A DNA stretch of 64,000 bases from a virus (lineage: Duplodnaviria; Heunggongvirae; Uroviricota; Caudoviricetes): the IMG/VR virus record IMGVR_UViG_3300048091_000424, one strand, 5' to 3'. The notes under the pieces were generated by a model that was not told where the DNA came from, did not search any database, and saw only the letters and a program-made list of their open reading frames with translations. Made by a program: the position numbers and the translations under genes. Positions 7,477 to 33,356 of this stretch are shown here, in pieces (the stretch's first letter is position 1; each line of letters opens with the position of its first letter).

Positions 7477-8361
7477 TCAAGATTCCAGTGAAAGTTCACC
7501 GATAAATTCGCGCCAGGCCACCTTGCCCACGGCATCGAATAACCTCAAGGCGTGACAGGCGTAGAGACCTGATGTTGAGAACGCATTAAGCTCAACGACC
7601 TTTGGCTCGCCGGCGAACAGGCCAACATCACAGGTGTACGCCAGGTCAACCTGCCACGGTAGTGCCGCGACCTGCTGTGCGACCTCAAGACACAGCTTAC
7701 TCACCACCGGATCAATACTGCGCTGCCCATTTACATGGTAGCGACTGCCGGTGACCACCTTCCCTTCGACAATGAAGAACCGGTATTCAGCGCGAATGCT
7801 TTGGGCTGGCGCAATCAATACACGGGTATCGTCTGTGACCGAGGTCAGTTGGCGAAGACTGTTGATCTCAACCCCTGCGGTTTCCTGTTCCAGGCATAGC
7901 CCGGTGAACGTCTTTCCTCCTGAGTCAGGTCGGACAAACAGGCGGCTGTCGCCGAAGAGTCGATATATCTGATCACGCCTGCGCACGAAATCACCGAACG
8001 GCAGGTACACCCCTTCTGCATTGCCCAGGAGCTCCAAGGGTAAGCGAGGCATGTAGTGGGAGCACGCCAGGCGATCCTTGGTGTAGTAGGCGCCGGGAAT
8101 GGCGTTTGAGTTACGCAGGCGCTGTTCAACGAACCCAATGCTGCCGTAGAGCACGATGCATTCATCGGCGCTGTAAGCTCGTAGGGGCTCTCTGTACGTA
8201 TCACGGCAGTACTCGGTCACCTCAACGGTGTAACCTAGCCTGCGCAGCGCCATGGGTAGCCTGACGTGGGGTGTGTCGGCGAGCATCCCCTGATCTATGA
8301 CAAAGGTGACCGAGCCACGGCCACGATTCGCCAAGGGTTGCGGCGGGATCACGGGGCGCAT
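7477..8361 (-). CDS. ATP-grasp domain protein (R2K-type/DUF4343-like)
   Basis: LFVRPDSGGKTFTG ... AEYRFFIVEGKVVTGSRY ... VVELNAFSTSGLY pattern typical of small ATP-grasp enzymes. Confidence 0.55.
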   Translation of the reverse strand: MRPVIPPQPLANRGRGSVTFVIDQGMLADTPHVRLPMALRRLGYTVEVTEYCRDTYREPLRAYSADECIVLYGSIGFVEQRLRNSNAIPGAYYTKDRLACSHYMPRLPLELLGNAEGVYLPFGDFVRRRDQIYRLFGDSRLFVRPDSGGKTFTGLCLEQETAGVEINSLRQLTSVTDDTRVLIAPAQSIRAEYRFFIVEGKVVTGSRYHVNGQRSIDPVVSKLCLEVAQQVAALPWQVDLAYTCDVGLFAGEPKVVELNAFSTSGLYACHALRLFDAVGKVAWREFIGELSLES

Positions 8362-8528
8362 TTTACAGCGTCCCGAGACACCCTATTCATTTCCGGCGTG
8401 GCAAACATCAGGCTGCCGACGAACACGACAGCCATTTCCTGACCCACACTGCAACCACCGGTGGCCGGCGTGCTACAGCCTGTGCAAGTCGCCAGAAACA
8501 GGCAACCCAAGAGAAAATGGCGCATCAT
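8349..8528 (-). CDS. Small putative lipoprotein (59 aa; below ORF-track cutoff)
   Basis: My translation: MMRHFLLGCLFLATCTGCSTPATGGCSVGQEM...; lipobox-like LATC; starts 6 nt after the stop of 8535..9278 and overlaps the ATP-grasp start by 13 nt. Confidence 0.45.
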   Translation of the reverse strand: MMRHFLLGCLFLATCTGCSTPATGGCSVGQEMAVVFVGSLMFATPEMNRVSRDAVKCAP

Positions 8529-8534
8529 GCCCCC

Positions 8535-9278
8535 TTAAATCAGCTTCAACCCAGCGGTTAGATGACTGATATTGTCCAGAAACTCGGGGCCGACCGCCAG
8601 CATTTTCACACCGTCCAGTTCAACCAGCGAGGTCGTCGAGCCCATGGCATCAAACTGACCCTGCAGGTCTAGCAATACCTCGTCCGTGGCCACACTCAAA
8701 GAAATCTTGGTGTACCCGTTTTTGATCCAGGAATCAAAAGCGATGTTGGTGTGGCTGGAGATCAGGAACTGCTTGAAGTCCGACTGCGTGTCCGGCTCCA
8801 GCATTTTTGCCATCTGACTCAGGCAACCGATGGCAGCCAGGGCGCAGACGGTTTCCTTCTTCATCGTTCTCGAACGGCTGAAAATGAAGTACTGCCGAGC
8901 TCTGCGTTCAGAGCCTTGTTCTGCGCAGTCGTATGGGGCGTCTTCCCATTTTTCGGAGAAGATCCCGTTGGCCGCGCAGGTGACGGTCTTAACGCCTTTG
9001 AATTCGGTCGCGCCGTTGTCAATGACCTTCTGACCGTCGTCGGCTTGGCCCATAAACGTCTGAACAGCAGCCTCCTCGACAACAAAGCCGAAGTCGACGT
9101 CTGGTGCAGCCAGGAAATTTGTGAGGGTGTTCATCTTCGCGTTGGACAAGCGCAGACCGTCTTTGCTCGGTCTCATGTGGCTGGCTAGCACTTTCATCGC
9201 GGCGTGGCCTGATTGGGAGGCCATCTTTCCCATGCGCATATTCAGATCGCTGCGCATTACGATCCTAAGCTTTCTCAT
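8535..9278 (-). CDS. PTH2-family peptidyl-tRNA hydrolase-like protein with large internal insertion
   Basis: N-terminus KLRIVMRSDLNMRMGKMASQSGHAAMKV resembles PTH2 (..[21 protein letters not shown]..); C-terminus WIKNGYTKISL...LAVGPEFLDNISHLTAGLKLI resembles the PTH2 C-terminal half; 247 aa versus about 115 aa for the domain. Confidence 0.6.
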   Translation of the reverse strand: MRKLRIVMRSDLNMRMGKMASQSGHAAMKVLASHMRPSKDGLRLSNAKMNTLTNFLAAPDVDFGFVVEEAAVQTFMGQADDGQKVIDNGATEFKGVKTVTCAANGIFSEKWEDAPYDCAEQGSERRARQYFIFSRSRTMKKETVCALAAIGCLSQMAKMLEPDTQSDFKQFLISSHTNIAFDSWIKNGYTKISLSVATDEVLLDLQGQFDAMGSTTSLVELDGVKMLAVGPEFLDNISHLTAGLKLI

Positions 9279-10528: not shown

Positions 10529-10594
10529 TTAGCCATCAACGTGCACCGAGAGATCATCGTGATCAACCCTGTCGTCGCCAAGGAAGCCAGCCCT

Positions 10595-11353
10595 ATGTCC
10601 ACTGAACCATACCTGCGGCCTGATCGCGACGACGTCCTGCAGAAGCTGGAAAGTTACCAGCAAACTGGCTGCCAGAAAACCCTGGCATGGCTGCTGAACG
10701 AACACCGGGACATGTGTTACAGCATCGCCTACCGGTACGATCATCGGTTTGAAGTGGACGATACCTTTCAGGACTGCATGGAAATTCTGATTCATGCCAT
10801 CCGGGATCACGATTTGACCGGGTCGTACCCATTCTTTTCGTACGCCTACACCCGCGTATCCCGTGAGGTTGCTCGCAAGAAAATCCGCCAATGGTCGATT
10901 GTCAGTGTTCCGGACAACCGAGAGCTACTAAAGGTCTTTCGCAAGGTCAACAAAATGGGGATTCCGGCTTACCCGTCAGATGCTAAAGCCAAAGAAGTCG
11001 CCGAAATTCTTGATGTCAAGGTTGAGTACGTTTTCGCCGCTGCGGCGCTTTACTATAAAAAACCGATGTCTCTGGACAGCGGCACTCATAGCGACGTGGT
11101 GAGGTCAACGCTCTATGACGATTCATGCTCTCCTGAGCGAATTGTAAGTGAGCAGGATTTTGAGGCCAAACGTACCGAACTCGCTCAGAGGATGATCGGT
11201 CGACTGAACGAGCGAGAGGCTCTGGTCATCCAGCTGCGACACTTGAACGAGCCACCTTTGAAGTTGCGTGAGGTCGGCGAAGAGCTGGGCATTACCGCAG
11301 CGCGTGTGCAGCAGATCGAAACCAAGGCCATGAAGATGATGATGGCGGCTTGA
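10595..11353 (+). CDS. RNA polymerase sigma-70 family factor
   Basis: ATG at 10595 after AAGGAAG; region-2-like FQDCMEILIHAIRDHD...FFSYAYTRVSREV; region-4.2 HTH LREVGEELGITAARVQQIETKAMKMM. Confidence 0.85.
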   Translation: MSTEPYLRPDRDDVLQKLESYQQTGCQKTLAWLLNEHRDMCYSIAYRYDHRFEVDDTFQDCMEILIHAIRDHDLTGSYPFFSYAYTRVSREVARKKIRQWSIVSVPDNRELLKVFRKVNKMGIPAYPSDAKAKEVAEILDVKVEYVFAAAALYYKKPMSLDSGTHSDVVRSTLYDDSCSPERIVSEQDFEAKRTELAQRMIGRLNEREALVIQLRHLNEPPLKLREVGEELGITAARVQQIETKAMKMMMAA

Positions 11354-13470: not shown

Positions 13471-15204
13471 CTAAAGGTAGGCTGACAACAGCGAGTCTAG
13501 GGGCTTTGAAACCTGGGCCTTAGCAACCTGAACCGTTTCGACAGGCTTCAGGTTGTAGTCGGCTGCCATGTCTTTGTAAACCGCAATCGATGCGTCGACA
13601 TCCGCTTGACTGGCAACCCCGGTGTACCTGGAGTAATGATTCTCCATCGTGGTGTGAATGTCCTCGGCCAATTTCATGGCCAACGGATCATCAGTGCGCT
13701 TGAACAGCATTTTCCTCGTCGCAGAAATCTCGCTCCACATCGCCTTCACTGCGGGTGTGAACATCGTATCCGAGTTAAGGCGCAACTCCCCAGGAAAATA
13801 GGTTCCATCCTTGGCCATGAAGTTCTTCTCCATAAGGAACTTGGCAATCTCCGGAATTTCTTCTTTGGTTTTCATATGGATCGCCGCAGGATCTATCTGC
13901 GGAAAAATCTCATCGAGTGCCCAAGCGGTTTTGTGCGCGTAGTCGTTTACCGTCGAGATTCGCATGGGGCGAATGAGGTCGGTGTACAAATCATTGGTGC
14001 CTGTTTCACGCATGTAATCCAGGCTGGCAACCAGGTCACCGAAGGTTTCCTCAAGGCTGCGTTGATAAGCCAGTTGCATATCAGACAGATCCCTGTCCCC
14101 AGCACCTGGTTGATCCAGCTGGAAGAAACAATGACCCCCTTCGTGTGATTTCATAAAGAAATCCCAAAGGTTTTTGTCTACTAGCATCTCCGGCATGTTG
14201 CTGAATTTGTAGAAATTACCGTCTTTTGTGACCGGGGCAATCTGGTGGTGGTGGACTATACAAAGTGCGCTCTCCGAGGCCTCACCAGGCTCAACCATTT
14301 GAGCTAGGCCTCCCACCTTGTCCGCTGTAAAACTGTCGATGGATTTCTGCAAGGTGTGATCACGGGCATAATTCTTAACCATCTGAATGCCGTCAAATTC
14401 GCCGAACTGGACAATCTTGCGTTCCGAGACCTTGTCCTTGGACAACACTGTTTCTATCGTTGGCCGCGATTGCAGGTCAACCAGACCAAATCCACTGGTG
14501 GTATTCGCAAACCCAGTGGCATAAATGCCGCCAAGAGTAATGCTGGCCAGCACCGCTGCCACCACCCCAAGCTTTAGACCCTTTTTCAGGTAAAGGGTCA
14601 GTGGCTTGTCCTTGAGTGCTTCCACGTCCACAGACGCCGGCGCCGAATCGACCATGGTCAGGAAGTCGCGGCTCTCTGCGCGGTTCTTGTCCACCCACTG
14701 TGATTCTGAAATTTCAGTTTTAACGCTGGTCAGCGACAGGCCTGGGTGGATTGAGGCACAAATTCTGCTGAAACCGCTGTTGAAGTGCTCCAGTGAACCG
14801 ATGTCGTGGCATGCACGCCTGGTCATTTCAACCAATCCGTCGCGAGCGTGCTCGCCGCCTAGCAACGACGTCAGGTCTTGCGCATACATCTCGCCCAGGT
14901 GATTGTTGATGCCACTGTGAAGCGGCTTATAGAGGCGCTCATTGTCGGTCAGCAGTGCACTGGTCAGCATCATGCCCTTTGACTTTGGGCTCAAAGCGTT
15001 CATGAACTCGAGTGATGGGTAGTTGATCTCGGGGTGACTTGCCGTAGCTGACAGGTCGACCAGGCTAGCCAAGACCGGTGAGTAGCCCGCCGAGTCGACG
15101 ACATCTTCAAGGCGAACCTGCCCAACCGCGTATCCGCTTAATGCACCCGACAAATGTAACTTCAGCGCTTCGTTAACCATGTTTTGGGATCTCCTTTCCG
15201 ACAT
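13471..15204 (-). CDS. Membrane-anchored protein with HExxH metalloprotease-type motif
   Basis: 577-aa ORF; one TM segment (LGVVAAVLASITLGGIYATGF); FMKSHEGGHCF contains H-E-x-x-H. Confidence 0.5.
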   Translation of the reverse strand: MSERRSQNMVNEALKLHLSGALSGYAVGQVRLEDVVDSAGYSPVLASLVDLSATASHPEINYPSLEFMNALSPKSKGMMLTSALLTDNERLYKPLHSGINNHLGEMYAQDLTSLLGGEHARDGLVEMTRRACHDIGSLEHFNSGFSRICASIHPGLSLTSVKTEISESQWVDKNRAESRDFLTMVDSAPASVDVEALKDKPLTLYLKKGLKLGVVAAVLASITLGGIYATGFANTTSGFGLVDLQSRPTIETVLSKDKVSERKIVQFGEFDGIQMVKNYARDHTLQKSIDSFTADKVGGLAQMVEPGEASESALCIVHHHQIAPVTKDGNFYKFSNMPEMLVDKNLWDFFMKSHEGGHCFFQLDQPGAGDRDLSDMQLAYQRSLEETFGDLVASLDYMRETGTNDLYTDLIRPMRISTVNDYAHKTAWALDEIFPQIDPAAIHMKTKEEIPEIAKFLMEKNFMAKDGTYFPGELRLNSDTMFTPAVKAMWSEISATRKMLFKRTDDPLAMKLAEDIHTTMENHYSRYTGVASQADVDASIAVYKDMAADYNLKPVETVQVAKAQVSKPLDSLLSAYL

Positions 15205-15260
15205 AATCTCATAGCCGCCTCATGTTGTTCAAAATCCTCGTTTGCATTACATAAAATGGT

Positions 15261-15279
15261 TGTCAATTTAGCCTATATG
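15261..15279 (+). promoter_or_regulatory. Recurrent motif TGTCAATTTA-N3-TATATG (TATAAT also at 15282)
   Basis: Exact 10-mer upstream of the RNA ligase gene. Confidence 0.45.
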
Positions 15280-15433
15280 CTTATAATGATGGCCATTCAT
15301 TCACCTAACCTTTTGCGAGTCGATCATTTGATCAATTCCATGACATTCGCCGGCAGGATCAACTGCCTCGTTTCAGCCTAGCGCCCTTCCCTCGCACATT
15401 TTTGCGGGCCCGGCGCCTGTAGAGATTGCGATC

Positions 15434-16462
15434 ATGAACACCCAATACCTTTTTGATGCCGAACAGTTCCGCGACGCCGTGTTCAAACGGGATCGACGTG
15501 TCTGTGTGTTTTGCTCGGCACCGGCTGAATCAGCCGCACACATCCTGGAATCCCAGCTGTGGGACGACGGCGGCCACTACCTGCAAAATGGCGCCAGCGT
15601 CTGCAGAGAGCACCGACTCGCTTTTGAAATGACACATCTGTTGCCTAAGCAAATTCGGATTGCTGCTCGTATCCCGGAAATACTGGTACCTCAGGACTAC
15701 TTTCCGACCACGCCCTATGACCACTGGGGCAACGAGATTTTGCACAATGGAATGCGTCTGCGCGGTGAGCTGTTTCTCGATGATAATGTCCAGCAGCTAC
15801 TGAGCCAGGGCCGCGTACTGGATCAGTTCACCTGGCAGGTGAAGTACCCAACCACCCCTCACCTACCATGGTCAGAAGGGATTCAGCGGGATGACCGCCT
15901 TCTGCGTGACGTGCTTCACTTCCTGGGTAAGCGCGTCGTCGTCACAATGAAGATGGATGGCGAAAACACCTCGCTTTACAGTGACTACATCCACGCTCGT
16001 TCGCTGGATTCAAGGCACCACGAATCTCGTGACTGGGTGAAAAACTTCTGGGCCAGATTCAAATGGCAAATCCCTGAAGGTTGGAGGATCTGCGGTGAAA
16101 ACCTGTTTGCCCAGCACTCGATCCGGTACAACGATCTGGTGAGCTACTTCAATGGCTTCTCGATCTGGAACGAACGCAACAAGGCGTTGGACTGGGATGA
16201 CACCCTGGGCTACTTCGACATCCTTGGGATCACCCCGGTCGAGGAAATCTACCGTGGCGTCTTTGACCAGAAGTTGATCCACACAGCCTACCTGGAAAAG
16301 TCAAAAGGCAAGGTGTGCGAAGGCTATGTCGTACGCGTGGAGGACGAGTTCGACTTCCGAGATTTCCGCCGTTCGGTGGCCAAGTTTGTCCGCAAAGACC
16401 ATGTGCAAACCAAAGATCACTGGATGACCAGTGAGATCATCCCCAACAAGCTGAAAGGTTGA
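15434..16462 (+). CDS. RNA ligase family protein with N-terminal HNH-like Cys/His module
   Basis: Nucleotidyltransferase motif I KMDGEN, CGEN, EGYVVR, KFVRKDH; N-terminus CVFC...AAHILE...GG...N...C..H resembles an HNH motif. Confidence 0.75.
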   Translation: MNTQYLFDAEQFRDAVFKRDRRVCVFCSAPAESAAHILESQLWDDGGHYLQNGASVCREHRLAFEMTHLLPKQIRIAARIPEILVPQDYFPTTPYDHWGNEILHNGMRLRGELFLDDNVQQLLSQGRVLDQFTWQVKYPTTPHLPWSEGIQRDDRLLRDVLHFLGKRVVVTMKMDGENTSLYSDYIHARSLDSRHHESRDWVKNFWARFKWQIPEGWRICGENLFAQHSIRYNDLVSYFNGFSIWNERNKALDWDDTLGYFDILGITPVEEIYRGVFDQKLIHTAYLEKSKGKVCEGYVVRVEDEFDFRDFRRSVAKFVRKDHVQTKDHWMTSEIIPNKLKG

Positions 16463-16576
16463 TCGCTGCACCACCAGCGGAGTTCGCTGCTTCGCTGTTT
16501 TCAGCGCCTGTTCCCTTGGACTTATTGCCATTAAATTGATATAAGATGGCATAACGAAATCACCAAGGATCTGGCC

Positions 16577-17983
16577 ATGTACATTCGCCCTAAACGCAAT
16601 CACCCTAACGCCGGCCCCCTGCTCACCCGCACCTTGATGCGCCGCGAGGGGTCGGCGTTTGATGCCGCGATTTTTCGTGACGACGGTGATCACTACGCTG
16701 AAGACATTAAGTTCGAGTATCTCCTCTACACGGTACCCTTCTGCCTTCAGCCTGCGTTATTTGGGATTTTTCTGGGCTTCTCCAAGCCGGCCATCACCCG
16801 ATTTTTGAGCCAGGCTGAAGTCAACCTGAGCGACATCGCAGGCCTGGCAACTGATGCGTTTGATCGCGCCGTCATGATTGCGGAAACCGGTGAAGAATTT
16901 ACCCTGTGGCAATTGCAGCGTTACCTGATCGAAGCCATGTCTGGTTGCCCGGTGCGAACCCACGCCATGATCAAGGAACTGCGGTCGAAAGAATTCAGCG
17001 GTAGCATCGGCGAGTCGCTGCTGCACTGTGAAGTACCCGCGTTGTGGGTTAGTAGCCGATTTGGTGGTGATGAGACCTTCACCATGCAGCGCCTACCAAA
17101 AAACATCAATCCAAACCTCTCTTACGAGAGCAATCTGGATATTCCCAATCACTCCTTTCCCGATCTTCTCCGTAGATCCGGTGTACTCAAAGATCAGTAC
17201 ATTCGCAAAGTCTTCGCCCTTCATGATTTCTACGAAGACCTGCTGATCAACCTCAGGGATGGGGAAGGATTAGCATTGCGCATCGTCAACAGCCTGGAGT
17301 TCCTCGATGACGATGAGGTCACCTCCTTTGCTTGGGGGCTGACCAATGCTGTGTTCATCCCAGACACCGACCGCATCGCGCCCCTGGGCGAAGAAAACAG
17401 TACCAATCCCCGTCCGTTGTTCCAGGTGCTGAAAACGCTGATCGAAGAGATGGAGTGCTTTGAGTCAGCCGACACGGTGACAGTAGCGCTCAACTACCTG
17501 CCAGCCGATTACATCGGCAACATTGACCGTGTGCAAGCGGACGAGCTCTACGCTCCTCTCCACGACTTCACCACGGTACTCAATCGTTTCTGTGAGGAAC
17601 TGCTAGAGCTTAATCCACTGGACTTCACCTTGGCCCATTTCACAGCCATGTCGAAGCTGCGCAATTTCCATTTTGCGGACTTCGAGCGGCCACGCCTGAG
17701 TAACACCTGCGTGCTGAGGCACGTAGCCTCCGCCGTTAAAGCTTTCAAGCCTTTTTTCAGCGAGGCGCCGACGCCGAAATGGGAAATCGACAAGCTGGTC
17801 GTGGCTTGCTGGAGGGACTTTGCTGACTTGTTCCGCGAGAAAGATTTTCGCCTCCTGTATGACGCGTCAGAGTTCATCTCCTCTGCGGTGCTCCCTATGA
17901 ACATGATCATGGAATATGACCGAAAATTCCCTGATCTGTGCGAGGATGACAAGAAAATATTGGCACGCTTCGAGGCACTTTAG
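16577..17983 (+). CDS. Hypothetical protein (468 aa), probable divergent relative of the tail family with degenerate C-terminus
   Basis: AAGGA RBS; C-terminal third resembles 48..557 (DFTLAHFTAMSK); ends ILARFEAL instead of FxxDLGL. Confidence 0.6.
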   Translation: MYIRPKRNHPNAGPLLTRTLMRREGSAFDAAIFRDDGDHYAEDIKFEYLLYTVPFCLQPALFGIFLGFSKPAITRFLSQAEVNLSDIAGLATDAFDRAVMIAETGEEFTLWQLQRYLIEAMSGCPVRTHAMIKELRSKEFSGSIGESLLHCEVPALWVSSRFGGDETFTMQRLPKNINPNLSYESNLDIPNHSFPDLLRRSGVLKDQYIRKVFALHDFYEDLLINLRDGEGLALRIVNSLEFLDDDEVTSFAWGLTNAVFIPDTDRIAPLGEENSTNPRPLFQVLKTLIEEMECFESADTVTVALNYLPADYIGNIDRVQADELYAPLHDFTTVLNRFCEELLELNPLDFTLAHFTAMSKLRNFHFADFERPRLSNTCVLRHVASAVKAFKPFFSEAPTPKWEIDKLVVACWRDFADLFREKDFRLLYDASEFISSAVLPMNMIMEYDRKFPDLCEDDKKILARFEAL

Positions 17984-18343: not shown

Positions 18344-20767
18344 ATGCAAGACTCTCATACGATAAAAATAGAAGCCGCTAAGAAGTCTATCGCCTCAGGA
18401 ATTTTCAACCTGAGCCACCTCGAAGACTTTCGGAGTGAATTTGATAACCTGAGTTGGAAGAAGCTCACTGCCTTCGGCGGTGAGAATATGAATGCCCTTT
18501 CCTCTTCTGACCAGGTTTTTATCAAGGATATTCTGGCCAAAGCCCTTGGGATTGATATTCAGGATTTGACACCTGACAGCTTGTTCAGCCCGCATAGGTC
18601 GTTACAGATTTTGCAGTCCATCAGAGTCGGCCAACCCGTACACGAGTTAATGTGGGAGCTATCAGTAGAGGCCAAGAGATACATCGATCATTTGATACAT
18701 GCTCATGGTGAGGAAAAACCAGTTTTTAAATTCCTGGTCGGAAACCCTGGTTCAGGGAAGACGACCTTTAGAAATCTGCTGCAATCTAAACTAGATCCGA
18801 GTTCTCCAATCATCCATAACACATTTGGCGCACAAACGACTGGGAACACTATTCACCTTGCGTGTGCATTCCTGTTCGATAAGGTAATGATTGATTCAGC
18901 GGCGAAAAAACTAAAGGAAACGAAGCTTCGTGATGCGCGGGCCTACGGGAATATAAAGAAATACGCAATGTCCCACAATTACTATCAGGTGCTGTCTCCT
19001 TTATTTGGCTACGCTGAATCAGATAAAGATGGATCGCTGGCCGAATTTGTTAATGAATATCACAACGCCGTGAACTGTTGGATTAAGAAAGACACAGTTG
19101 GAGAACTTAAATCACTTCAAAGACATTATGGTGAACCCTGCGAGGTAATGCCTAGACCAAAAGAGTCGAATTCAATAAACTTTACTGCACAGATAATGAG
19201 TTTCTATAGCAAGATCGGACTTTATCCGGTTTGGTTAATGGACGAGTTCGAGGCTCACGAATCTCTTTACCGCGCTTATAGAATTAAAGTTTTGGACTAT
19301 TTCCGTGGGTTCTTTGACATTTTATCTGACCCGAGTTCTAAAGGCTTCTGCCTGATTTTCTCCACTGAAGCTGGCATGCACATCATTGATAGCTATCCAG
19401 CTTTAAGTGACAGACTCTCTTCTGGTAAGTATTTTTCGCTCACTCAAGCCATCTGGAGGCTGTCGGCACTAGATAAATGGAATAATGAGTATGCAATCAA
19501 GGTCATAAAGGAGTTGTACCACGCATCAGCTCAAATTGACGATATTTCTGAGGCTGTAGATAGAGCCATAAGCGAACTTGGTGGTGAACTTGACCTTGTA
19601 TTGAACAGAGAGTTCAACAAGGAAGTCGCTAGAAATCGTTTGACCCCAACTGTGACTGGCCTACTTGATCCACTATCTGAACCAGACTCGACAATAAAAA
19701 CAGACATCAAGAAAATCGCCGACAAAATTAAGTCGATTGAAGCCGCTGCAACTCAAGTGACTCGTGCTTGTTATGAACCAGAAATGGAAAACATTAAATC
19801 ACCAACTAGTGACCAGCAACACGCTGGTAACCTAGTCTTAGCTAAGGAAAATTACGACCCTACAGCAGCTGTTGTATTGATGGAGTATGCTGCCGGCAAG
19901 GATCGTAACCGTGATCCGTTCGAAGACGATCCATTCGGTGATGATCAGTTAGTAGAATCTTCAGAAGATGATGACTTCGACAGTTTTGATGGGTTCGAAC
20001 TGCCAAACCTGTACGCAAGTGATTATCGAGGTGAAGCTGATTTTATTGAATACCTAATTAGCTTCGAACATAACATCACCAATATTACAGTCGACAACTT
20101 GAGACCGCAGCAAATCAAGGAAAGTTCAATATTCAACTTCTTTGCGCGTAACAAGCACAAACACTCAGCCAAGTGGCCGGCACAACTGCAATTTAATAAA
20201 AAACCTCTAGAGTTTTCTGGCGAGCTAAATAGTAGTGATTTAAAATTCATTATCAGCGATTTCGAAAAATCCAGGTCACCCTCAAGCCTGGCTAAGAAAT
20301 ACGCAAGGTTTCGTGATTTGGGTGGCCGTTACGAAAACCTTCCATTGCAAATTCAGACTGCGATAGAAGATAAACTACCAGAAATCAACAAGCAATTTAA
20401 CTTCAACCTTAATCTTATTTTATCAGCTGTGGCGAGCGACCACCTCCTACCAACGGTTAAGATAACAGACCTGAAAAGGATACAGTCGGATGGAGACAAC
20501 ATAATCTCTATCCAAGGTCAGTCAGTCACACAACTCGTTCGGTGGAATGTGTTTGAGACGCTGTCTCTTACCAGATCACTTGTTTATGCCTACGCGTTCA
20601 ACTCAGGATATTTCCCACCTGATGCAGAGGTGGATGAGTATGTCCTTGAATGGCACGAAAAATTGGGGATGACGAAAATTACGCCAGATCGAAATGGGGT
20701 TTTCTTCTACTCGAAAGATGGCCTATGGGATAAGGAACTCCAGAATATCCGTAATACGTGGGAATGA
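18344..20767 (+). CDS. Large P-loop NTPase (807 aa) in an AT-rich island
   Basis: Walker A FLVGNPGSGKTTF, Walker B-like VWLMDEFE; acidic linker DPFEDDPFGDDQLVESSEDDDFDSFDGFE; composition visibly AT-richer than the flanks. Confidence 0.8.
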   Translation: MQDSHTIKIEAAKKSIASGIFNLSHLEDFRSEFDNLSWKKLTAFGGENMNALSSSDQVFIKDILAKALGIDIQDLTPDSLFSPHRSLQILQSIRVGQPVHELMWELSVEAKRYIDHLIHAHGEEKPVFKFLVGNPGSGKTTFRNLLQSKLDPSSPIIHNTFGAQTTGNTIHLACAFLFDKVMIDSAAKKLKETKLRDARAYGNIKKYAMSHNYYQVLSPLFGYAESDKDGSLAEFVNEYHNAVNCWIKKDTVGELKSLQRHYGEPCEVMPRPKESNSINFTAQIMSFYSKIGLYPVWLMDEFEAHESLYRAYRIKVLDYFRGFFDILSDPSSKGFCLIFSTEAGMHIIDSYPALSDRLSSGKYFSLTQAIWRLSALDKWNNEYAIKVIKELYHASAQIDDISEAVDRAISELGGELDLVLNREFNKEVARNRLTPTVTGLLDPLSEPDSTIKTDIKKIADKIKSIEAAATQVTRACYEPEMENIKSPTSDQQHAGNLVLAKENYDPTAAVVLMEYAAGKDRNRDPFEDDPFGDDQLVESSEDDDFDSFDGFELPNLYASDYRGEADFIEYLISFEHNITNITVDNLRPQQIKESSIFNFFARNKHKHSAKWPAQLQFNKKPLEFSGELNSSDLKFIISDFEKSRSPSSLAKKYARFRDLGGRYENLPLQIQTAIEDKLPEINKQFNFNLNLILSAVASDHLLPTVKITDLKRIQSDGDNIISIQGQSVTQLVRWNVFETLSLTRSLVYAYAFNSGYFPPDAEVDEYVLEWHEKLGMTKITPDRNGVFFYSKDGLWDKELQNIRNTWE

Positions 20768-20910: not shown

Positions 20911-21516
20911 ATGCGCAAGCTGCCCAACTTGAAAGATCGGTTTTTCTACCACGGATCCCCGTGCTCCATTGATGTCTTCGACTACAAGTTCGCCGAGAAC
21001 GGGCAGGGATTTGGCTTTTACTTCACCACGGATAAATCCGGCGCCGCAGGCTTTTGCTCCGAAAACCCCATCACCAAGGCGGCGGGGTTACCTTTCGTCC
21101 CGACACTTCACAAAGTCCGCCTAAAGGTAGAAAACCCACTGGGTCACCAGCATGTCCAGGCGCTGACGAAGGCCCAATGCCGGGAGATCATTAAACGCGC
21201 TCCAAACCTCGAGGAAAGGCTCTGGAACACCTGGGATGTCGATAGCCTCGGTGCAGACAAAGCGCTGGATGAGGCAGCCAAGCTCTTTAGCGGCAAGGAT
21301 TGCATCCTCATCAGTACACTCAACCAAATCGCCAACGAATTCTTTGAGGGCGAGATGGGGGCGCTCAGCTCTGCCCTGCGCGACGTGACTGGTTACGACG
21401 GCTTGATCCGCACATGCGGTAAAGATGTGACGATCATGGCCTGGTTCCCTGACCAGGTCGAAATCGTGTCTCGCATCGACCCAGCTCTCGAACTGGATGA
21501 GGCGCCTGCACCATGA
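20911..21516 (+). CDS. Hypothetical protein; possible ADP-ribosyltransferase-like (ART-PolyVal-type) enzyme
   Basis: FYHGS...GFGFYFTT...GYDGLIR...AWFPDQVEIV recalls the H-Y-E ART pattern of polyvalent-protein ARTs (from memory, unverified); stop overlaps next start (ATGA). Confidence 0.5.
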   Translation: MRKLPNLKDRFFYHGSPCSIDVFDYKFAENGQGFGFYFTTDKSGAAGFCSENPITKAAGLPFVPTLHKVRLKVENPLGHQHVQALTKAQCREIIKRAPNLEERLWNTWDVDSLGADKALDEAAKLFSGKDCILISTLNQIANEFFEGEMGALSSALRDVTGYDGLIRTCGKDVTIMAWFPDQVEIVSRIDPALELDEAPAP

Positions 21517-22634
21517 GTGACACTACCCCAAGCGCCTTCGACCAGTTGGTAAAAATCCGCGTTGAAATCCGCAAGCATTGTAAGTCTCAGACTGGCGGCG
21601 ATCCGATGGACGTCTACGACCTCCTGTCCGACTACTGTGACATCTTGGAGCGCCTGGCCACCCAGCGGCAATATTCGGTCATGGCCACGGCCATGGATCG
21701 CCTCAACACCGTCGCTGAAGATTTGTTTCAGCGTCCGCACATGGTGCCGGTGATCGCCGATTTGTTTTTGGAGCGCCTCCCCTTTAGTCACCGCACGGTA
21801 TTCAACCTCGCTGGAAGTTTGACCGGCGTGCTGCGTGAAAACCTGTCGCAACTTGCTGTCGAAAACCTCATAGCCCACGAGGCATTTCTTTCAGATAGGG
21901 ATGAGCATCTCGCAGGTGGCGTTATCCGAAATCTGCTGCGCTATTGCGATAGTCCAGCACCGGCTTTGCAGTACGCGCAGTCGATCCTGCCCCTGTTCAA
22001 TAGTAAGACGTCGGGTTTTGAGTCAGTCCTAAGCGCCATACTCGACAGTAGAACATTGAAAAATATGCCTCATGAGAAATTCCAGCCTTTGGTGGAATGG
22101 GTGTCAGAGCTCGATGTTCTTACCTTGTGCCAAGGGCTAAAGCCGGGCTATGCCACGAAAGAGAGAGTCGCCATCTTCCGCGAAGCGGGCTTACCTCTTC
22201 TCGCCGATGGCCTCTACTATAAAAACAACCAGGTGAACGCTCGGGAGATGATCGAAATCCATAGGCGAACAGGCCTTAAACCCGACGCGGCATACCTTGA
22301 TCAATTCTTCGGCCAGGGTAAAACCCCTGAGGCGAGGGAGCTTCGCGAGCTGCTGAAGTATTCTTTGGCAGTTGAGAACGTTTTCCCACTGGACTGGGAG
22401 GGAATCAAAGCACCGTGGGTCACCAGCTCCCTGGTAGATGCTTTTGCCCGCCTCGAGCAGATGGGTGTAAGACCCCGCTCTCCTGAGGAATGCGAACCGC
22501 TGATTTCACAGTTGGGCGATCACCTTAGAAGCTCGGAAAACATGGACTCGCTGCTCAACAAAAAGACTAAGCCATACCTGCAGATCTCCCATAAATTTAA
22601 CGGCAAGCTGTTTGGCCTAGAACTCGGCCTTTAG
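21513..22634 (+). CDS. FxxDLGL-tail family protein (373 aa), subtype A
   Basis: Ends KLFGLELGL; shares LLKYSLAVENVFP and PRSPEECEPLIS with 25072..26253. Confidence 0.75.
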   Translation: MSDTTPSAFDQLVKIRVEIRKHCKSQTGGDPMDVYDLLSDYCDILERLATQRQYSVMATAMDRLNTVAEDLFQRPHMVPVIADLFLERLPFSHRTVFNLAGSLTGVLRENLSQLAVENLIAHEAFLSDRDEHLAGGVIRNLLRYCDSPAPALQYAQSILPLFNSKTSGFESVLSAILDSRTLKNMPHEKFQPLVEWVSELDVLTLCQGLKPGYATKERVAIFREAGLPLLADGLYYKNNQVNAREMIEIHRRTGLKPDAAYLDQFFGQGKTPEARELRELLKYSLAVENVFPLDWEGIKAPWVTSSLVDAFARLEQMGVRPRSPEECEPLISQLGDHLRSSENMDSLLNKKTKPYLQISHKFNGKLFGLELGL

Positions 22635-22644
22635 GGAATTTTCA

Positions 22645-23841
22645 ATGTCAAACCAAATTGCCCGTGATCTGACGCAAGCCGCACAAGCGCTGATCCGAAC
22701 CGTGAACGGCACCAATCCGGGCGAAGATGTTCTGCACCAACAATTATGGGATCTGGCTAATGCGTGCCATCTGGCCAAGCAAAATGACAGCCTCAATCTC
22801 CTGGCGCGTGCTCACCAGGCGGTAAAGGAAACGACACGAGGGTTCATGAACCTGGTCACACGTCGTGGATGTCCCGATGTCATCGCTCAGTACCTGGAGT
22901 TGTTTCCTCTCCATGAGCAATACGCTGAGGAGTTTTTGCAGATCATTCACGAATCGGAGTGTCTCAATGCGGCAGATAAGAGCCGCTTGCTTGGGGATCT
23001 GGTCGACAATGTTATCAAGCATGAAACCTTCACCGTGAAAAATCAGTTTGGGGGCACCGACTTCTACGACGCCCGCAAGTTTCTGGTGATGAATCTGAAT
23101 GGCTTCGAATTCGAAGAGGGCAAAAGCCTCGACTCCACGCCGCTTGGCAAATTCTGTACGAATCTCTGCGAGATCCGAAACGATGCCGCCGCCATCATAA
23201 TCACCACGTTGAACACGGCGGAAAGTGCCCGGTCGGCCAATGCGGCTGTTGGATACAAAGCTCTAGGATATTGGTTCAATGGTCATCAGCCGGATCTGTT
23301 TTTGGGTGTGATGCGCAACAATCCGTCTGACTACAATACCTTTAACATTGTGCAAACAACGAGGGATACGCTTGAGGCGCCCTACCTCGCCGCTTGCCTC
23401 AATATGCGTTCAATCGATCCTGATTTTGAGATCCTGATCGAAGGCCTTAAAACCTATGAACTCAGGGTTGATGAGACCTTTAAACGCACGATGGCGTACG
23501 ACTCTGATGGAGAGTCAATGCGAACTCTTTCTGAGGGAACTCTGGAGACATTGATCGCATACTCACTCACCGTCGAACATGTCTTGCCCCACGCCATACA
23601 GACTGTTGGGACGAAGTACGACCTCATCACAGCATTGGTCAACGCCGGTCGAGAAGTGGCGAAGCCCGAGTACCAGGCGTTTGATAGCAAAGCCAGGGCT
23701 CAAGAGGTCGTCGACTTTGTAATGGACAGGGTCACCGGGAAAGAGGACTTCTCCCAGATGGAGACCAGTTGGCTACTGCCGTATGCTCAAAAGAACCTTA
23801 CCTACCTCAAGCACGCGTTCAGTCGTGACCTAGGATTGTGA
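22645..23841 (+). CDS. FxxDLGL-tail family protein (398 aa), subtype B
   Basis: Ends NLTYLKHAFSRDLGL; collinear with 23882..25069. Confidence 0.75.
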   Translation: MSNQIARDLTQAAQALIRTVNGTNPGEDVLHQQLWDLANACHLAKQNDSLNLLARAHQAVKETTRGFMNLVTRRGCPDVIAQYLELFPLHEQYAEEFLQIIHESECLNAADKSRLLGDLVDNVIKHETFTVKNQFGGTDFYDARKFLVMNLNGFEFEEGKSLDSTPLGKFCTNLCEIRNDAAAIIITTLNTAESARSANAAVGYKALGYWFNGHQPDLFLGVMRNNPSDYNTFNIVQTTRDTLEAPYLAACLNMRSIDPDFEILIEGLKTYELRVDETFKRTMAYDSDGESMRTLSEGTLETLIAYSLTVEHVLPHAIQTVGTKYDLITALVNAGREVAKPEYQAFDSKARAQEVVDFVMDRVTGKEDFSQMETSWLLPYAQKNLTYLKHAFSRDLGL

Positions 23842-23881
23842 AATGTCTACCCGCCACCCATATCAACGAAGGAACGGATAA

Positions 23882-25069
23882 ATGACAACTCTGACGAGTA
23901 GACTCGCCACAGCGACCAAGGCTTTGCAATCCAGCCTAGAGCTCCGACATCCTTCCCCCGAGGTGTTGATGCAGCAACTGCACGACCTGGCGGAGATCGG
24001 GTATCAAGCCCATGGCACATTCAGCGTCAACCTCTTGGCAAAGCTTGATGGTGCGTTGAAGGACTGCACGCGAGGGCTGATGAGCAACCTGGAACGCAAC
24101 GAACATCCCGAAGTCATCGAGCTATTCCTTCAGCTGTTTCCTGTAAACGACCATTACGTCGTTGAGTTTATGGAAACAATCTGTCGTTGCGGGACTCTGG
24201 ACATAATTGAAAAAAGGAACCTGAGGGAGAAGCTGATTGCCAATGTGATCAATCATGAGACCTTGGCCACCTATGGTCGCGACGCCATCCTGAACCATAG
24301 CGCCGCGATAAACTTCATAGAGGCCAGCATGGACGGGTATGGCGATGGCGGCGAATCAGCTACTGTCGACAAGGTCTTCACTGACTTTTTCAAGTCAATC
24401 GTGCAGACACGATACGAGGGTGCCAATGTGCTTATGCGTGCGCTAAGCGCCAAAGAAGCCAATCCAGGCATCACCAAGCTGGACGGGTGGAAAAAGCTCA
24501 AGGCATGGCTCCTGGACAATGAACAGTTCGTAATCAGTTGCGTGCTAGCCAACGGGATGTCGGATTACAATTCCGCATCCAGCATCCTGCATGCTCAAAA
24601 TAGCTTGGGCTTACCTCACCTGGCCGCTGCCTTGAACCTACGGTCTTCAGATCCAATTTTGAAGGTTCTGGTTGAGGGTCACACCATCTATGGTTTGTCA
24701 GTGGATGAAAGCTTCATGCAGGGTATTGGCCTTACCGACGGTGGAACCCAGCGCAAGTTTGATCATCTTACCCTCGAGTGTCTCCTCGCCTACTCCTTGA
24801 TGATAAAACCCATTTTGCCTGACCCGCTGGAGCCCAAGGCCGCGAACAGCTTGGTTGAGTCTCTTTGCGCGGCTGCCAACATAGTTACTTTTGAGCAGTA
24901 TGAGAGGTTTGACTGCAAACCTAACGCTCAAGCGGTTGTCGACTTTGTGATGGAACGTGTGACCGGAAAAGAGAATTTTGCCCTGCTCGAAGACAGCTGG
25001 CTGCGCCCTTACGCCGAGAAGAACCTGACCTACTTGAAACACGCGTTCACTCGCGATTTGGGATTGTGA
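23882..25069 (+). CDS. FxxDLGL-tail family protein (395 aa), subtype B
   Basis: AAGGAA RBS; ends NLTYLKHAFTRDLGL; AQAVVDFVMERVTGKENF matches AQEVVDFVMDRVTGKEDF. Confidence 0.75.
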   Translation: MTTLTSRLATATKALQSSLELRHPSPEVLMQQLHDLAEIGYQAHGTFSVNLLAKLDGALKDCTRGLMSNLERNEHPEVIELFLQLFPVNDHYVVEFMETICRCGTLDIIEKRNLREKLIANVINHETLATYGRDAILNHSAAINFIEASMDGYGDGGESATVDKVFTDFFKSIVQTRYEGANVLMRALSAKEANPGITKLDGWKKLKAWLLDNEQFVISCVLANGMSDYNSASSILHAQNSLGLPHLAAALNLRSSDPILKVLVEGHTIYGLSVDESFMQGIGLTDGGTQRKFDHLTLECLLAYSLMIKPILPDPLEPKAANSLVESLCAAANIVTFEQYERFDCKPNAQAVVDFVMERVTGKENFALLEDSWLRPYAEKNLTYLKHAFTRDLGL

Positions 25070-25071
25070 TT

Positions 25072-26253
25072 ATGCCCACTCAGAACGCCCTACCCCCCAT
25101 TGTCCGTGACATCAGCCGGTACAATGACTTGCTCACAATCAATAATGAGTTGTACCGATTGGTTGTGACTGATGACCCGGATCCGCTCCTCGTTCACGCG
25201 CTGATGGTCGACTTCATTCAGGGAATGGATGACCTTGCGACCCAGCGCCTGCATGTCCTGGTGGGGAAAGCAGCCGCGATGATGGATGTGACCATTCTGG
25301 ATCTGTTCAAGCGTCCGGCAATTGCTGAAGTCATTTCTGAGTTGTACTTCCAACATTTTCAGGCACCGATTCGTCTGGTGTTCAGTATCGCTGCCGGGCC
25401 GGAAGGCCAACTGCTGACGGATGCATATAGCGATGAGCTGCGTGATGCTTTGGTGGCTCGGGGCGTCGAGAACTTGATCGCCTACGATGCTTTTACCACT
25501 GACACCGACCAGCATCTCATGGATTCGTTGATCATCCACATTCTTCGACTTAGCGAGCAAACTCAGCCAGCAGTGGACTTGTGCGACGCTATTGTGGGAC
25601 GTCGTAATGACAAAAAAGCAGGCATCGATGTCATATTTTCAGCGGTTTACATCGCCATCCAGGACGCAAAATATAAACCCGACGCTACCAGGCCTTTATT
25701 GGCTTGGATGCAGGGCAGGCAAGCTGATTTGGTCAACCAGATGGTCAATACCAAGCAGGGAATTTGGATGGCTATGGAACTGACTGACTTTTTTCAAAGC
25801 AACGGGCTGCAAGATCTTGCGGATCGCTGGTACCTTCGCTCCAGCTACTTGGATTTTCAGCGTTTGTACGCCATTCATCAGCGCTGTGGCTTGAAACCTG
25901 ATCAGGATTATCTGCAGCAATTCATCGCTGCCGATTGCAGCCCATCCATTAAGCTACTGGGTGACTTGCTCAAGTATTCGCTTGCAGTCGAAAATTTTAT
26001 CCCTGACGCCAGTAAACTCACCTTCAAGCCGACCTGGGTCACCAAATCCTTGGTGGATGCCTTCAACACCTTCCGCGAAATGGGCATTGAACCCCGCTCA
26101 CCAAAAGAGTGTGAGCCACTGATTTCCCTTTTGGCTGGGCATTTGAAAAGCGAAGAAACCATGACTCCCCTAATGGCCAAGGAAATCCAGCCCTACATCG
26201 CGATCTCGAATAGCTTCCAGACTAAAATGTTCGGCATGGACTTGGGTCTGTAG
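25072..26253 (+). CDS. FxxDLGL-tail family protein (about 393 aa), subtype A
   Basis: Track ORF 25066..26253; ATG at 25072; ends KMFGMDLGL. Confidence 0.75.
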   Translation: MPTQNALPPIVRDISRYNDLLTINNELYRLVVTDDPDPLLVHALMVDFIQGMDDLATQRLHVLVGKAAAMMDVTILDLFKRPAIAEVISELYFQHFQAPIRLVFSIAAGPEGQLLTDAYSDELRDALVARGVENLIAYDAFTTDTDQHLMDSLIIHILRLSEQTQPAVDLCDAIVGRRNDKKAGIDVIFSAVYIAIQDAKYKPDATRPLLAWMQGRQADLVNQMVNTKQGIWMAMELTDFFQSNGLQDLADRWYLRSSYLDFQRLYAIHQRCGLKPDQDYLQQFIAADCSPSIKLLGDLLKYSLAVENFIPDASKLTFKPTWVTKSLVDAFNTFREMGIEPRSPKECEPLISLLAGHLKSEETMTPLMAKEIQPYIAISNSFQTKMFGMDLGL

Positions 26254-26311
26254 GCCACCACACAAAAAGGGCCATGTAAATTTTTCTGGCTTAAGAATTA
26301 CGGAGTTAACA

Positions 26312-33171: not shown

Positions 33172-33247
33172 TCCGTGATAGCTCAGTCGGTAGAGCATCG
33201 GACTGTTAATCCGAGTGTCCCTGGTTCGAGTCCAGGTCACGGAGCCA
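33172..33247 (+). tRNA. tRNA-Asn(GTT)
   Basis: Hand-folded cloverleaf: acceptor TCCGTGA/TCACGGA, anticodon arm TCGGA-CTGTTAA-TCCGA, TTCGAGT T-loop, encoded CCA. Confidence 0.9.
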
Positions 33248-33259
33248 GCCTTACGCACT

Positions 33260-33346: not shown

Positions 33347-33356
33347 AGAATTCAAA

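Follow-up and report, generated by a model that had tools for sequence, protein, structure and literature searches.

A probable seal-only phage enzyme of the RNA-ligase type with an N-terminal HNH nuclease-type domain

Introduction

The 64,000-nt stretch of phage DNA analysed here, referred to as the window, has an ORF at 15434..16462 on the plus strand, which starts with ATG and comprises 342 codons plus a stop. A sequence-only reading had described the product as an RNA ligase fused to an HNH-like module, and had proposed that it might cut and seal damaged tRNA. The question raised by this locus is whether the HNH module cuts what the ligase joins. Judged from its sequence, this jumbo-phage gene specifies an enzyme for sealing RNA that also has an HNH nuclease-type domain, and the enzyme most likely only seals.

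The existence of such a gene is no news, as the domain fusion has already been catalogued. Rnl2-family ligases with N-terminal HNH domains were described by Iyer et al. 2021 (PMC7824862), where Burroughs & Aravind 2016 is cited for the HNH-Rnl2 fusion. The family is very abundant (5698 database hits), and we found no biochemical work on any of its members in the searchable literature. Natural variants in which the ligase, the HNH fold, and the zinc site are intact and the metal ligands are missing provide ready-made separation-of-function alleles.

Domain architecture and family

The window protein matches PHROG 24030 ("RNA ligase") with an E value of 3.1e-119, with aa 9-341 aligned to profile positions 6-341 of 342. 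The AF2 model of the full-length protein has a pLDDT of 92.5 and a pTM of 0.86. The protein is divided into three parts as follows.

15434..16462, plus strand: whole ORF, HNH-fold module, connector, and Rnl2-like RNA ligase domain (PHROG 24030 match, AF2 model)
15434..15658, plus strand: HNH (beta-beta-alpha-metal) fold module, aa 1-75
15659..15841, plus strand: conserved connector, aa 76-136
15842..16459, plus strand: Rnl2-like adenylyltransferase (ligase) domain, aa 137-342

An uninterrupted ORF and dN/dS values of 0.07-0.14 rule out a pseudogene. The fusion of HNH module and ligase resides in a single ORF and is conserved in many homologues, as the sequence-only reading had assumed, and the survey of the domain combination which that reading had called for retrieved full-length fusions from plasmids and an archaeal virus as well as from jumbo phages. 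The fusion is not the oddity it had been taken for. PHROG 24030, the annotation of HGTV-1 gp233 as "RNA ligase; HNH endonuclease domain", and the description in PMC7824862 demonstrate that it is an already recognised, normal architecture of a large family. Among the best 120 of the 5698 hits, the N-terminal module and the connector are conserved at full length in all 120 homologues, and related contigs have the module in the corresponding, syntenic place. We therefore ruled out both an accidental gene fusion and a homing HNH endonuclease inserted 5' of the ligase. Nine of the ten longest proteins among the best 150 representatives checked by Pfam have the N-terminal module together with the ligase; the tenth, P0143, has a BACON match only, and the shorter representatives look like truncated metagenomic proteins. 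Ligase-only homologues occur in other jumbo phages (XacN1, Atu_ph07, and Lak phages), with matches that start from query aa 122-138.

We then compared the window protein with HNH-fused Rnl2-family ligases of named phages and viruses, namely HGTV-1 gp233 (Halogranum virus), CcrBL9 gp226 (Caulobacter phage), ME3 gp200 (Acinetobacter phage), RsoM2USA gp242 (Ralstonia phage), and SCTP-2 gp101 (Salicola phage). Their identity to the window protein is 29-53% at 95-98% coverage, and they share its three-part architecture, its ligase motifs, and its zinc site. All five aligned fusions keep the pattern HH...N...C-x-x-(H/C)-H...E, whereas in the window protein these positions include A35 and R61, and several of the conserved basic residues are missing. 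What is specific to the window protein is an apparently decayed HNH active site beside intact ligase motifs.

The HNH module

The stretch RRVCVFC...CREHRLAFE, from which an HNH/zinc-finger-like layout had been proposed, is located at aa 21-65 (15494-15628), and the layout is real. PHROG HNH matches, albeit weak, cover aa 10-74 of the window protein (E 4.7e-4 and 2.3e-3). A search of PDB sequences with the family profile reached the HNH domain of IscB (E 0.0085), with CxxC, HH, N, and CxxHH matching motif for motif. Specifically, OgeuIscB aligns residue for residue with the family motif CxxC..HH..N..CxxHH, and H36 is placed on its H247, a residue equated with Cas9 H840 (PMC9640706). The suggested check against Pfam gave a divided result: the RNA_ligase model (PF09414) is matched with an E value of 7e-28 (98.3 bits, cutoff 27), but the HNH models give no match to the window protein at a cutoff as permissive as E <= 10, and such models weakly match a few intact relatives, with a best E value of 0.0015. 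The HNH assignment is hence based on the fold search, the PHROG hits, and the family profile.

The zinc ligands C24, C27, C57, and H60 are all present in the window protein. The three cysteines are invariant in the family, and position 60 alternates between His and Cys, as a zinc ligand should; this makes H61 the canonical C-x-x-C-H position, nine residues past N52. The family consensus of the module is CxxC...HH...N...Cxx(H/C)H...E. Aside from the zinc site, the window protein has kept His36 at the general-base position, where strand beta-1 ends, the structural Asn52, and E65, and C64 is replaced by Phe. The beta-beta-alpha-metal fold and the structural zinc site (CxxC ... Cxx[C/H]) are both found in the window protein, and the HNH domains of IscB/Cas9, phage GVE2 HNH, McrA, and Cap5 have the same fold and a CxxC...CxxH site. 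These results support a true HNH fold of the beta-beta-alpha-metal kind at the N-terminus, complete with its CxxC...CxxH zinc site. The earlier reading had allowed for a normal N-terminal domain of this ligase family with no HNH relationship; the module is indeed the normal N-terminal domain, but the HNH relationship is there.

The connector hosts the conserved residues P86, Y95-D96, W98-G99-N100, R108, G111-E112-L-F, and V119-Q120. It accompanies the HNH module and is missing in the ligase-only homologues. A structural search yielded no match for it.

Probable decay of the nuclease site

In HNH nucleases the catalytic metal is bound by the residue just before the general base and by a His or Asn on the alpha-helix. 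These ligands, conserved in the family consensus, are absent from the window protein, in which both aligned positions are substituted (H35A and H61R). In the 120 closest of the 5698 hits, from which the conservation statistics were drawn, position 35 is His in 119 homologues and position 61 is His in 116. Compared with HNH nucleases, the window protein has lost both metal-ligand positions but has kept the general-base His. Six near-invariant basic residues, R9, R40, R41, K97, K121, and R140, are lost as well. The two close relatives P0001 (93% identical) and P0002 (73%) are altered at the same catalytic positions by differing substitutions, which are H35T, H61R, and E65K in the former, and H36Y, H61Q, and E65N in the latter. 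At positions conserved to at least 90% in 117 other homologues, deviations of the window protein amount to 9 of 36 in the HNH core, 6 of 30 in the connector, and 6 of 84 in the ligase (p 0.013 and 0.009 by Fisher test). P0021 and P0099, which represent two other lineages, have lost H61 along with R9 and R40 (P0099 also R41), and neither is a nearest relative of the query clade in the ligase domain.

The module is nonetheless maintained. Measured against P0001, dN/dS is 0.14 for the HNH core, 0.08 for the connector, and 0.07 for the ligase, and the value of about 0.12-0.14 for the N-terminal module indicates purifying selection. His36, Asn52, Glu65, Glu39, and Asp45 remain, and a rewired, weak metal site is possible. 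His48 is a change from Tyr shared by the clade. We consider it less likely that Y48H supplies a metal ligand in place of H61, because P0041 has H48 beside an intact H61, and P0099 lost H61 yet keeps Y48.

As the metal ligands are replaced and the basic residues lost while the module is still selected, a nuclease-dead appendage with a structural or substrate-handling role is most likely. Loss of the six basic residues would argue against a module simply retained for nucleic-acid binding; it may instead be kept for a wholly structural function or for protein-protein contacts. The substitutions suggest that the lineage of this phage has seen its nuclease active site decay with the HNH module still under purifying selection. 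The module would serve as an accessory domain, as do the C-domain for T4 Rnl2 and the N-domain for Rnl5. Taken as a whole, we regard it as probable that the window protein is an active Rnl2-like ligase with a nuclease-dead N-terminal HNH accessory module, which seals without cutting in phage RNA repair. A syntenic orthologue with an intact HNH, P0011, is present in L001, a related jumbo-phage-like contig, and its comparison with the window protein would inform whether the HNH cuts, and whether the ligase needs the HNH to bind and seal.

Alternative roles of the HNH module

Two independent activities have been hypothesised for Rnl2-HNH fusions by Iyer et al. 2021 (PMC7824862). The HNH would be an offensive DNase against host or competing-phage DNA, the ligase would repair RNA, and the two would be fused for co-expression only; in the window protein, the weapon would be disarmed and the domain kept for folding. 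The repeated loss of catalytic residues with the ligase kept fits such a history, and XacN1, Atu_ph07, and the Lak phages indicate that the ligase domain can stand alone, but the HNH and a dedicated connector accompany the ligase in nine of the ten long representatives, and the pTM of the full-length model suggests a fixed interdomain arrangement. The dN/dS values of the degenerate module, 0.12-0.14, are not neutral either. We consider this explanation unlikely.

HNH nucleases leave 3'-OH/5'-PO4 ends, which are the substrate of ATP-dependent ligases. An HNH that is still active could accordingly trim or cleave damaged RNA (or DNA) to such ends for the fused ligase to join, and its products would match what the ligase uses. 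However, A35 and R61 are non-ligands at both metal-ligand positions, and SpCas9 can dispense with neither of its corresponding residues, D839 and N863. The retained His36, Asn52, zinc site, and Glu65 speak for activity, but the differing substitutions in the close relatives, which in P0002 extend to the general base (H36Y), have the pattern of relaxed constraint on catalysis, and where the catalytic site is lost, conserved basic residues tend to be lost too. Purifying selection on the module also speaks for activity, and its presence with the ligase in the nine long representatives suggests functional coupling in the family, yet no Pfam HNH model recognises the window protein. Also in favour of cutting, PtuB of Retron-Eco7, an HNH nuclease, was reported to degrade specific tRNAs (PMC12409363). 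On balance, a window protein that still cuts is quite unlikely. The sealing half of the earlier proposal is supported by the intact ligase motifs, and the cutting half is made unlikely by H35A, H61R, and the lost basic residues.

The ligase domain

The preferred reading, sealing without cutting, relies on an intact ligase half. Four motifs had been named from the sequence, and all of them are at the expected codons of the ORF.

15950..15967, plus strand: motif I KMDGEN, aa 173-178, K173 being the predicted AMP-accepting lysine (string check, homologue alignment)
16091..16102, plus strand: motif III region CGEN, aa 220-223, E222 invariant (string check, homologue alignment)
16319..16336, plus strand: motif IV EGYVVR, aa 296-301, E296 and G297 invariant (string check, homologue alignment)
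16382..16402, plus strand: motif V KFVRKDH, aa 317-323, K317, V319, R320, and H323 invariant (string check, homologue alignment)

K173, D175, G176, and E177 are invariant across 72 aligned homologues, and the window protein keeps every ligase motif residue that is invariant in these 72. Its adenylyltransferase fold, the intact motifs, and the PF09414 score bear out the RNA ligase identity given by the sequence-only reading, and support the assignment as an RNA-ligase-type covalent nucleotidyltransferase with a full motif set, which is a prediction from sequence and modelled structure. A single-sequence search of PDB sequences with the window protein gave nothing useful, and the family-profile search found the IscB HNH domain but no RNA ligase; therefore, the ligase domain was placed by structure. 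Some family members have LAGLIDADG inteins within the ligase domain near motif I (intein from about aa 180-210), and in them the Pfam RNA_ligase match resumes at about aa 530-575. Inteins usually occupy conserved, functionally important sites.

T4 Rnl2 (PDB 1S68, 2HVQ, and 2HVR) has Pfam PF09414 and the motif set in common with the window protein, but the identity is only about 15%. Its accessory domain is C-terminal, whereas that of the window protein is N-terminal and has the HNH fold; the window protein ends about 20 aa past motif V and lacks the signature C-terminal domain of the Rnl2 type. The Rnl5 ligases (Naegleria gruberi NgrRnl, PDB 5COT; Deinococcus DraRnl) are of similar size (about 340 aa) and have the same order, an N-terminal accessory module followed by a C-terminal adenylyltransferase. 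The Rnl5-type N-terminal accessory domain itself is absent from the window protein.

From homology and the intact motifs, ATP would adenylylate K173, the AMP would be passed to a 5'-phosphate RNA end, and attack by a 3'-OH would close the break; an enzyme working in these steps would therefore require 3'-OH/5'-PO4 ends. Ligase activity and its preference for RNA or DNA, and for nicks or single strands, are predictions here, as is nuclease activity of the intact relatives. That the ligase half instead acts on DNA nicks or in other adenylyl transfer, with the tRNA-related genes of the window unrelated to it, is very unlikely, even though HNH domains are typically DNA-binding, the neighbours are orphans without an RNA-repair signature, and the scanned ORFs of the window yielded neither a Pnk nor a phosphoesterase as a healing partner, because RNA ligases (Pfam RNA_ligase, T4 Rnl2, NgrRnl, Rnl3, and TbREL1) rank above DNA ligases among the sequence and structure matches, the window protein has no OB domain of the DNA-ligase type, and the family co-occurs with tRNA-rich jumbo phages.

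Possible tRNA-repair context

The sealing enzyme would mend RNA, probably tRNA, broken while the phage infects a host with RNA-targeting defences. The gene had been placed next to a tRNA set, a CCA-adding enzyme, and a PTH2 homologue, which overstates their proximity. PTH2 (8535-9278) is about 6 kb upstream, and downstream the array of 11 tRNAs (33172-35083) follows after about 17 kb and the CCA-type nucleotidyltransferase (48414-49913) after about 32 kb. Pfam searches of about 50 ORFs of the window, which is part of the phage genome, revealed no Pnk-like kinase/phosphatase, RtcB, or 2H phosphoesterase; the sole phosphoesterase, at 39713-40465, is of the NinI-like Ser/Thr phosphatase type. The phage may have a Pnk gene in the part of its genome beyond the window. 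The proposed tRNA repair kit is thus plausible as a loose idea, and the healing half that it has in T4 Pnk/Rnl is absent from the window. The T4 pathway of Pnk and Rnl1, directed against the anticodon nuclease PrrC, likewise has an ATP-dependent RNA ligase that is encoded by the phage, which here accompanies genes for the supply and upkeep of tRNA, namely the 11 tRNAs, the CCA-type nucleotidyltransferase, and PTH2. It differs in having a Pnk-type healing enzyme, in that its ligase is Rnl1 whereas the window protein is Rnl2-like, and in its organisation, as the tRNA-related genes of the window are dispersed and form no operon.

Since the window shows no enzyme for healing ends, breaks made by metal-dependent nucleases, which already have 3'-OH/5'-PO4 ends, would be the most direct substrates. 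If it is true that the ligase alone handles such breaks, this points to a Pnk-free phage counter-defence against metal-dependent tRNA nucleases. A broader and rather doubtful reading, offered tentatively, is that the HNH-connector-ligase family are break-and-rejoin enzymes in which the HNH mainly senses breaks or ends for the ligase instead of being a free-standing weapon. The metal ligands were lost, with the module under purifying selection, in at least three lineages that look independent, this phage among them; they would represent a natural "pseudo-nuclease" state that recognises, without any longer cutting, 3'-OH/5'-PO4 RNA breaks made by host metal-dependent tRNA nucleases (HNH PtuB, Toprim AriB, and PIN types), and would conduct Pnk-independent phage tRNA repair.

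The adjoining ORFs, 13471-15204 (minus strand) and 16577-17983 (plus strand), have no Pfam or PHROG match. When 20 kb of the window were compared by megablast with a collection of 50,697 phage records, no match resulted, so that this collection does not include the phage itself. Family members in isolated phages have no conserved gene partner beside them, their neighbours being unannotated small ORFs. Two regulatory candidates flank the gene.

15260..15287, plus strand: sigma-70-like promoter candidate, TTGTCA-16-TATAAT, 11/12 matches (consensus match only)
16476..16501, plus strand: weak terminator-like hairpin with a T-rich tail, 14 nt past the stop (consensus match only, 5-bp stem, low confidence)

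The promoter candidate lies inside the 229-bp divergent intergenic region 5' of the ligase gene; the consensus scan saw two sites, compared with 1.1 expected in shuffles. Read from these elements, the ligase gene at 15434..16462 may be monocistronic.

Ligase domain and its fusion partner

The ORF and its flanking signals are laid out as follows, and every string quoted in the sequence-only reading was found in place.

15434..16462 (+), ORF with ATG start, 342 aa (window sequence)
aa 21-65 (+), N-terminal string RRVCVFCSAPAESAAHILESQLWDDGGHYLQNGASVCREHRLAFE (located in the ORF translation, as are the four below)
aa 173-178 (+), KMDGEN
aa 220-223 (+), CGEN
aa 296-301 (+), EGYVVR
aa 317-323 (+), KFVRKDH
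15260-15287, candidate sigma-70-like promoter TTGTCA-16-TATAAT in the divergent intergenic region upstream (consensus match only)
3' of the ORF stop, candidate weak hairpin plus T-tract (consensus match only)

The earlier observation is confirmed, and its interpretation is right in part. Pfam RNA_ligase (PF09414) matches aa 167-319 with an E of 7e-28 (98 bits vs a cutoff of 27). Invariant columns of a 72-homologue alignment include K173, D175, G176, E177, E222, E296, G297, K317, V319, and R320, and the window protein has every one of them, that is, the full nucleotidyltransferase motif set. The AlphaFold2 model predicted from this alignment is confident (pLDDT 92.5, pTM 0.86), and a Foldseek search of the PDB placed T4 Rnl2 as the top match (E 6e-6); archaeal Rnl3 and Naegleria Rnl5 followed closely. 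Together, these results assign aa 137-342 as a predicted Rnl2-like adenylyltransferase domain. Different from T4 Rnl2, the window ligase has no C-terminal domain, as the protein ends about 20 residues past motif V.

The fusion, which the earlier reading wished to see verified, is real but not unusual. PHROG 24030 ("RNA ligase") matches aa 9-341 with an E of 3e-119, and tblastn found full-length homologues of 29-53% identity in Salicola phage SCTP-2, Ralstonia phage RsoM2USA, the Caulobacter CcrBL9/CcrSC group, Acinetobacter phage ME3, and the haloarchaeal virus HGTV-1, whose gp233 already bears the annotation "RNA ligase" and, as a remark, "HNH endonuclease domain". A large protein database returned 5698 hits, the best 120 of which are nearly all about 340 aa long with a query coverage of 95-100%. 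The homologue P0011, encoded in locus L001 under the source name Pseudomonas putida, is phage-like because L001 is syntenic with the window; a second record of it is on a 463-kb contig that bears the label Pseudomonas putida and probably represents a phage-plasmid or a jumbo phage. Another homologue, P0077, lies on a Paucibacter contig that is plasmid-like given the adjoining Rep3_C/ParA/ParB-family genes. The window protein hence belongs to a family that has been recognised before and that occurs in phages, in an archaeal virus, and on plasmid-like contigs, and judging from these matches the HNH-ligase architecture is known and common. Rnl2-family ligases bearing an HNH domain at the N-terminus have been described by Iyer et al. 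2021 (PMC7824862); we found no published assay of any such protein in the searchable literature.

Searching 1.84 billion representatives with an N-module profile gave 188 clusters at E < 1e-30. Among the ten longest of the best 150 representatives, nine carry an RNA_ligase domain in a Pfam check, and the tenth (P0143) matched only BACON. In five of the nine, an intein interrupts the ligase domain, and four of these inteins include a LAGLIDADG endonuclease. In these members, P0124, P0132, P0176, P0194 (about 700 aa), and P0185, the intein lies near motif I, from about aa 180-210, and the RNA_ligase match resumes at about aa 530-575.

The HNH-fold module and its probably degenerate metal site

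With the window sequence as query, aa 10-74 match PHROG "HNH endonuclease" families weakly (E 4.7e-4, 2.3e-3, others weaker). Among all PDB sequences, the sole match of the family profile is the IscB HNH domain (E 0.0085), with CxxC, HH, N, and CxxHH pairing up motif by motif. These matches bear out the proposed HNH-like N-terminus at the fold level. No Pfam HNH model matched the window protein. The connector (aa 76-136) accompanies the HNH module; P86, Y95-D96, W98-G99-N100, R108, G111-E112, and V119-Q120 are conserved, and no structural match to it was found. In XacN1, Atu_ph07, and Lak phages, tblastn matched the ligase part only, from query aa 122-138 onward.

The N-module consensus among the best 120 of 5698 hits comprises C24, C27, D33, H35, H36, E39, R40, R41, N52, C57, H/C60, H61, C64, and E65. 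In the IscB profile alignment, H36 is opposite OgeuIscB H247, which Kato et al. 2022 (PMC9640706) give as catalytic and as the counterpart of Cas9 H840. By this pairing, H35 corresponds to the metal ligand just before the general base, with Cas9 D839 and colicin E9 H102 as counterparts. H61, at the canonical "C-x-x-C-H" position nine residues past N52, is the third residue of the HNH triad and matches Cas9 N863, and E65, four residues further, sits where the last His of H-x3-H stands. Position 60 is H or C in phage homologues ("CGECH", "CDSCH", "CNDCH"), and this alternation marks it as the fourth zinc ligand.

The window protein keeps the zinc ligands C24, C27, C57, and H60 as well as H36, N52, and E65, and carries H35A, H61R, C64F, D33S, R40S, and R41Q; its lost basic residues include R9, R40, R41, K97, K121, and R140. 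Only six of the best 120 of 5698 hits deviate at any core position. The two closest relatives among these 120 are P0001 (93% identical; H35T, H61R, E65K) and P0002 (73% identical; H36Y, H61Q, E65N), whose different substitutions at the same sites point to a loss of constraint on catalysis and not to a new motif. Of the positions conserved to 90% or more in the other 117 homologues, the window protein differs at 9/36 HNH-core, 6/30 connector, and 6/84 ligase positions (Fisher p 0.013 and 0.009). Correlated losses like these also occur in the lineages of P0021 (H61R, C64S, E65D, R9Q, R40S) and P0099 (H61L, C64Y, E65Q, R9A, R40M, R41A), neither of which is nearest to the window clade by ligase domain.

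We then inspected selection, taking the DNA of P0001, P0002, and P0011 from syntenic contigs. Comparing the window with P0001, the Nei-Gojobori dN/dS comes to 0.14 in the HNH core, 0.08 in the connector, and 0.07 in the ligase domain; vs P0002, with dS near saturation, it is 0.10 for the N-module and 0.12 for the ligase. Such low values argue against neutral decay. By sequence, both HNH metal ligands are lost in the window lineage while the module persists under selection, and it would keep some function independent of the metal site. The "cut" half of the proposed cut-and-seal enzyme is unlikely for this copy, since H35A and H61R hit metal-ligand positions, and the window enzyme most likely seals without cutting. 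Such a putative, naturally nuclease-dead variant would be a minor addition, though a helpful one for dissecting the HNH-ligase family.

Genome context and tRNA repair

The following genes surround the ligase.

7477-9278 (-), R2K ATP-grasp and PTH2-like genes, forming with the next-but-one entry a conserved block upstream of the ligase, syntenic in loci L001 and L008
8535-9278 (-), PTH2, E 4.8e-16; 247 aa, Pfam match split over two stretches
10541-11353 (+), sigma-70 family factor
16577-17983 (+), 468 aa, directly downstream of the ligase, without family match
33172-35083, tRNA array of 11 genes: Asn, Leu x2, Glu x3, Asp x3, Arg x2
48414-49913, CCA-type nucleotidyltransferase bearing an HD domain

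The window also encodes ART-PolyVal, dCTP deaminase, and a non-specific endonuclease, and its gene set, including the sigma-70-type factor, PTH2, and 11 tRNAs, suggests a segment of a jumbo phage. The order R2K - PTH2 - sigma70 - ... - ligase - ... - ART-PolyVal is common to the window, L001, and L008, and locus L011 keeps it from the ligase onward. The HNH is intact in P0011, the L001 orthologue. PTH2, tRNAs, and the CCA enzyme, held to neighbour the ligase in a tRNA repair kit, are all present but dispersed, and neither Pfam nor PHROG matches the genes immediately flanking the ligase. Analogy makes a role in repair of RNA or tRNA plausible, but gene linkage in the window does not support it.

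A Pfam scan of about 50 ORFs of the window detected neither a polynucleotide kinase/phosphatase nor RtcB nor a 2H phosphoesterase, a NinI-like Ser/Thr phosphatase being the only phosphoesterase. As an ATP-dependent ligase requires 3'-OH/5'-PO4 ends, direct repair by a ligase without a healing enzyme would be limited to breaks from metal-dependent nucleases. HNH, Toprim, and PIN types are among tRNA-targeting defence nucleases (PMC12409363); their end chemistry is inferred from general nuclease mechanism.

The threefold Glu-Asp alternation of tRNA genes at 34140-34890 suggests tandem duplication. The 16577-17983 gene is conserved beside the ligase in L008 and L011; its product ends in ...RFEAL and is similar to ORF 48-557 (BLASTP E 1.6e-6), which is tagged as described next.

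Other features of the window

Thirteen of 76 window ORFs share the C-terminal end [F/L]-x-x-[D/E]-L-G-L-stop: 48-557, five tandem genes in 21513-27514, 29841-31406 (-), 31403-32485 (-), 37280-38308, 38327-39277, 44109-44792, 51321-52667, and 62346-63665 (-). Some have no other detectable mutual similarity. The 12 searched, 25066-26253 and 26312-27514 not among them, gave no family match (11 against Pfam, one also against PHROGs); for 29841-31406, the query came from outside the C-terminal end. The motif looks like a shared C-terminal tag of this jumbo phage, with a conceivable part in sorting, packaging, or processing.

The 807-aa product of 18344-20767 (+) has a P-loop in its N-terminal part (GNPGSGKTT, about aa 133-141). 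Its only Pfam matches, to AAA_22, Zeta_toxin, BrxC/D, and DUF6035, are sub-threshold, and PHROGs gave none. The DNA/RNA non-specific endonuclease at 5227-6120 (+) (Pfam Endonuclease_NS, E 1e-45) has a signal-like hydrophobic segment at its N-terminus. Two tellurite-resistance-associated genes occur here in a phage context, a Ter-operon-type ATP-grasp at 42873-44021 (-) (ATPgrasp_Ter, E 2.5e-28) and, at 59150-60262 (-), a membrane protein of the DUF475/TerC family (E 3e-97).
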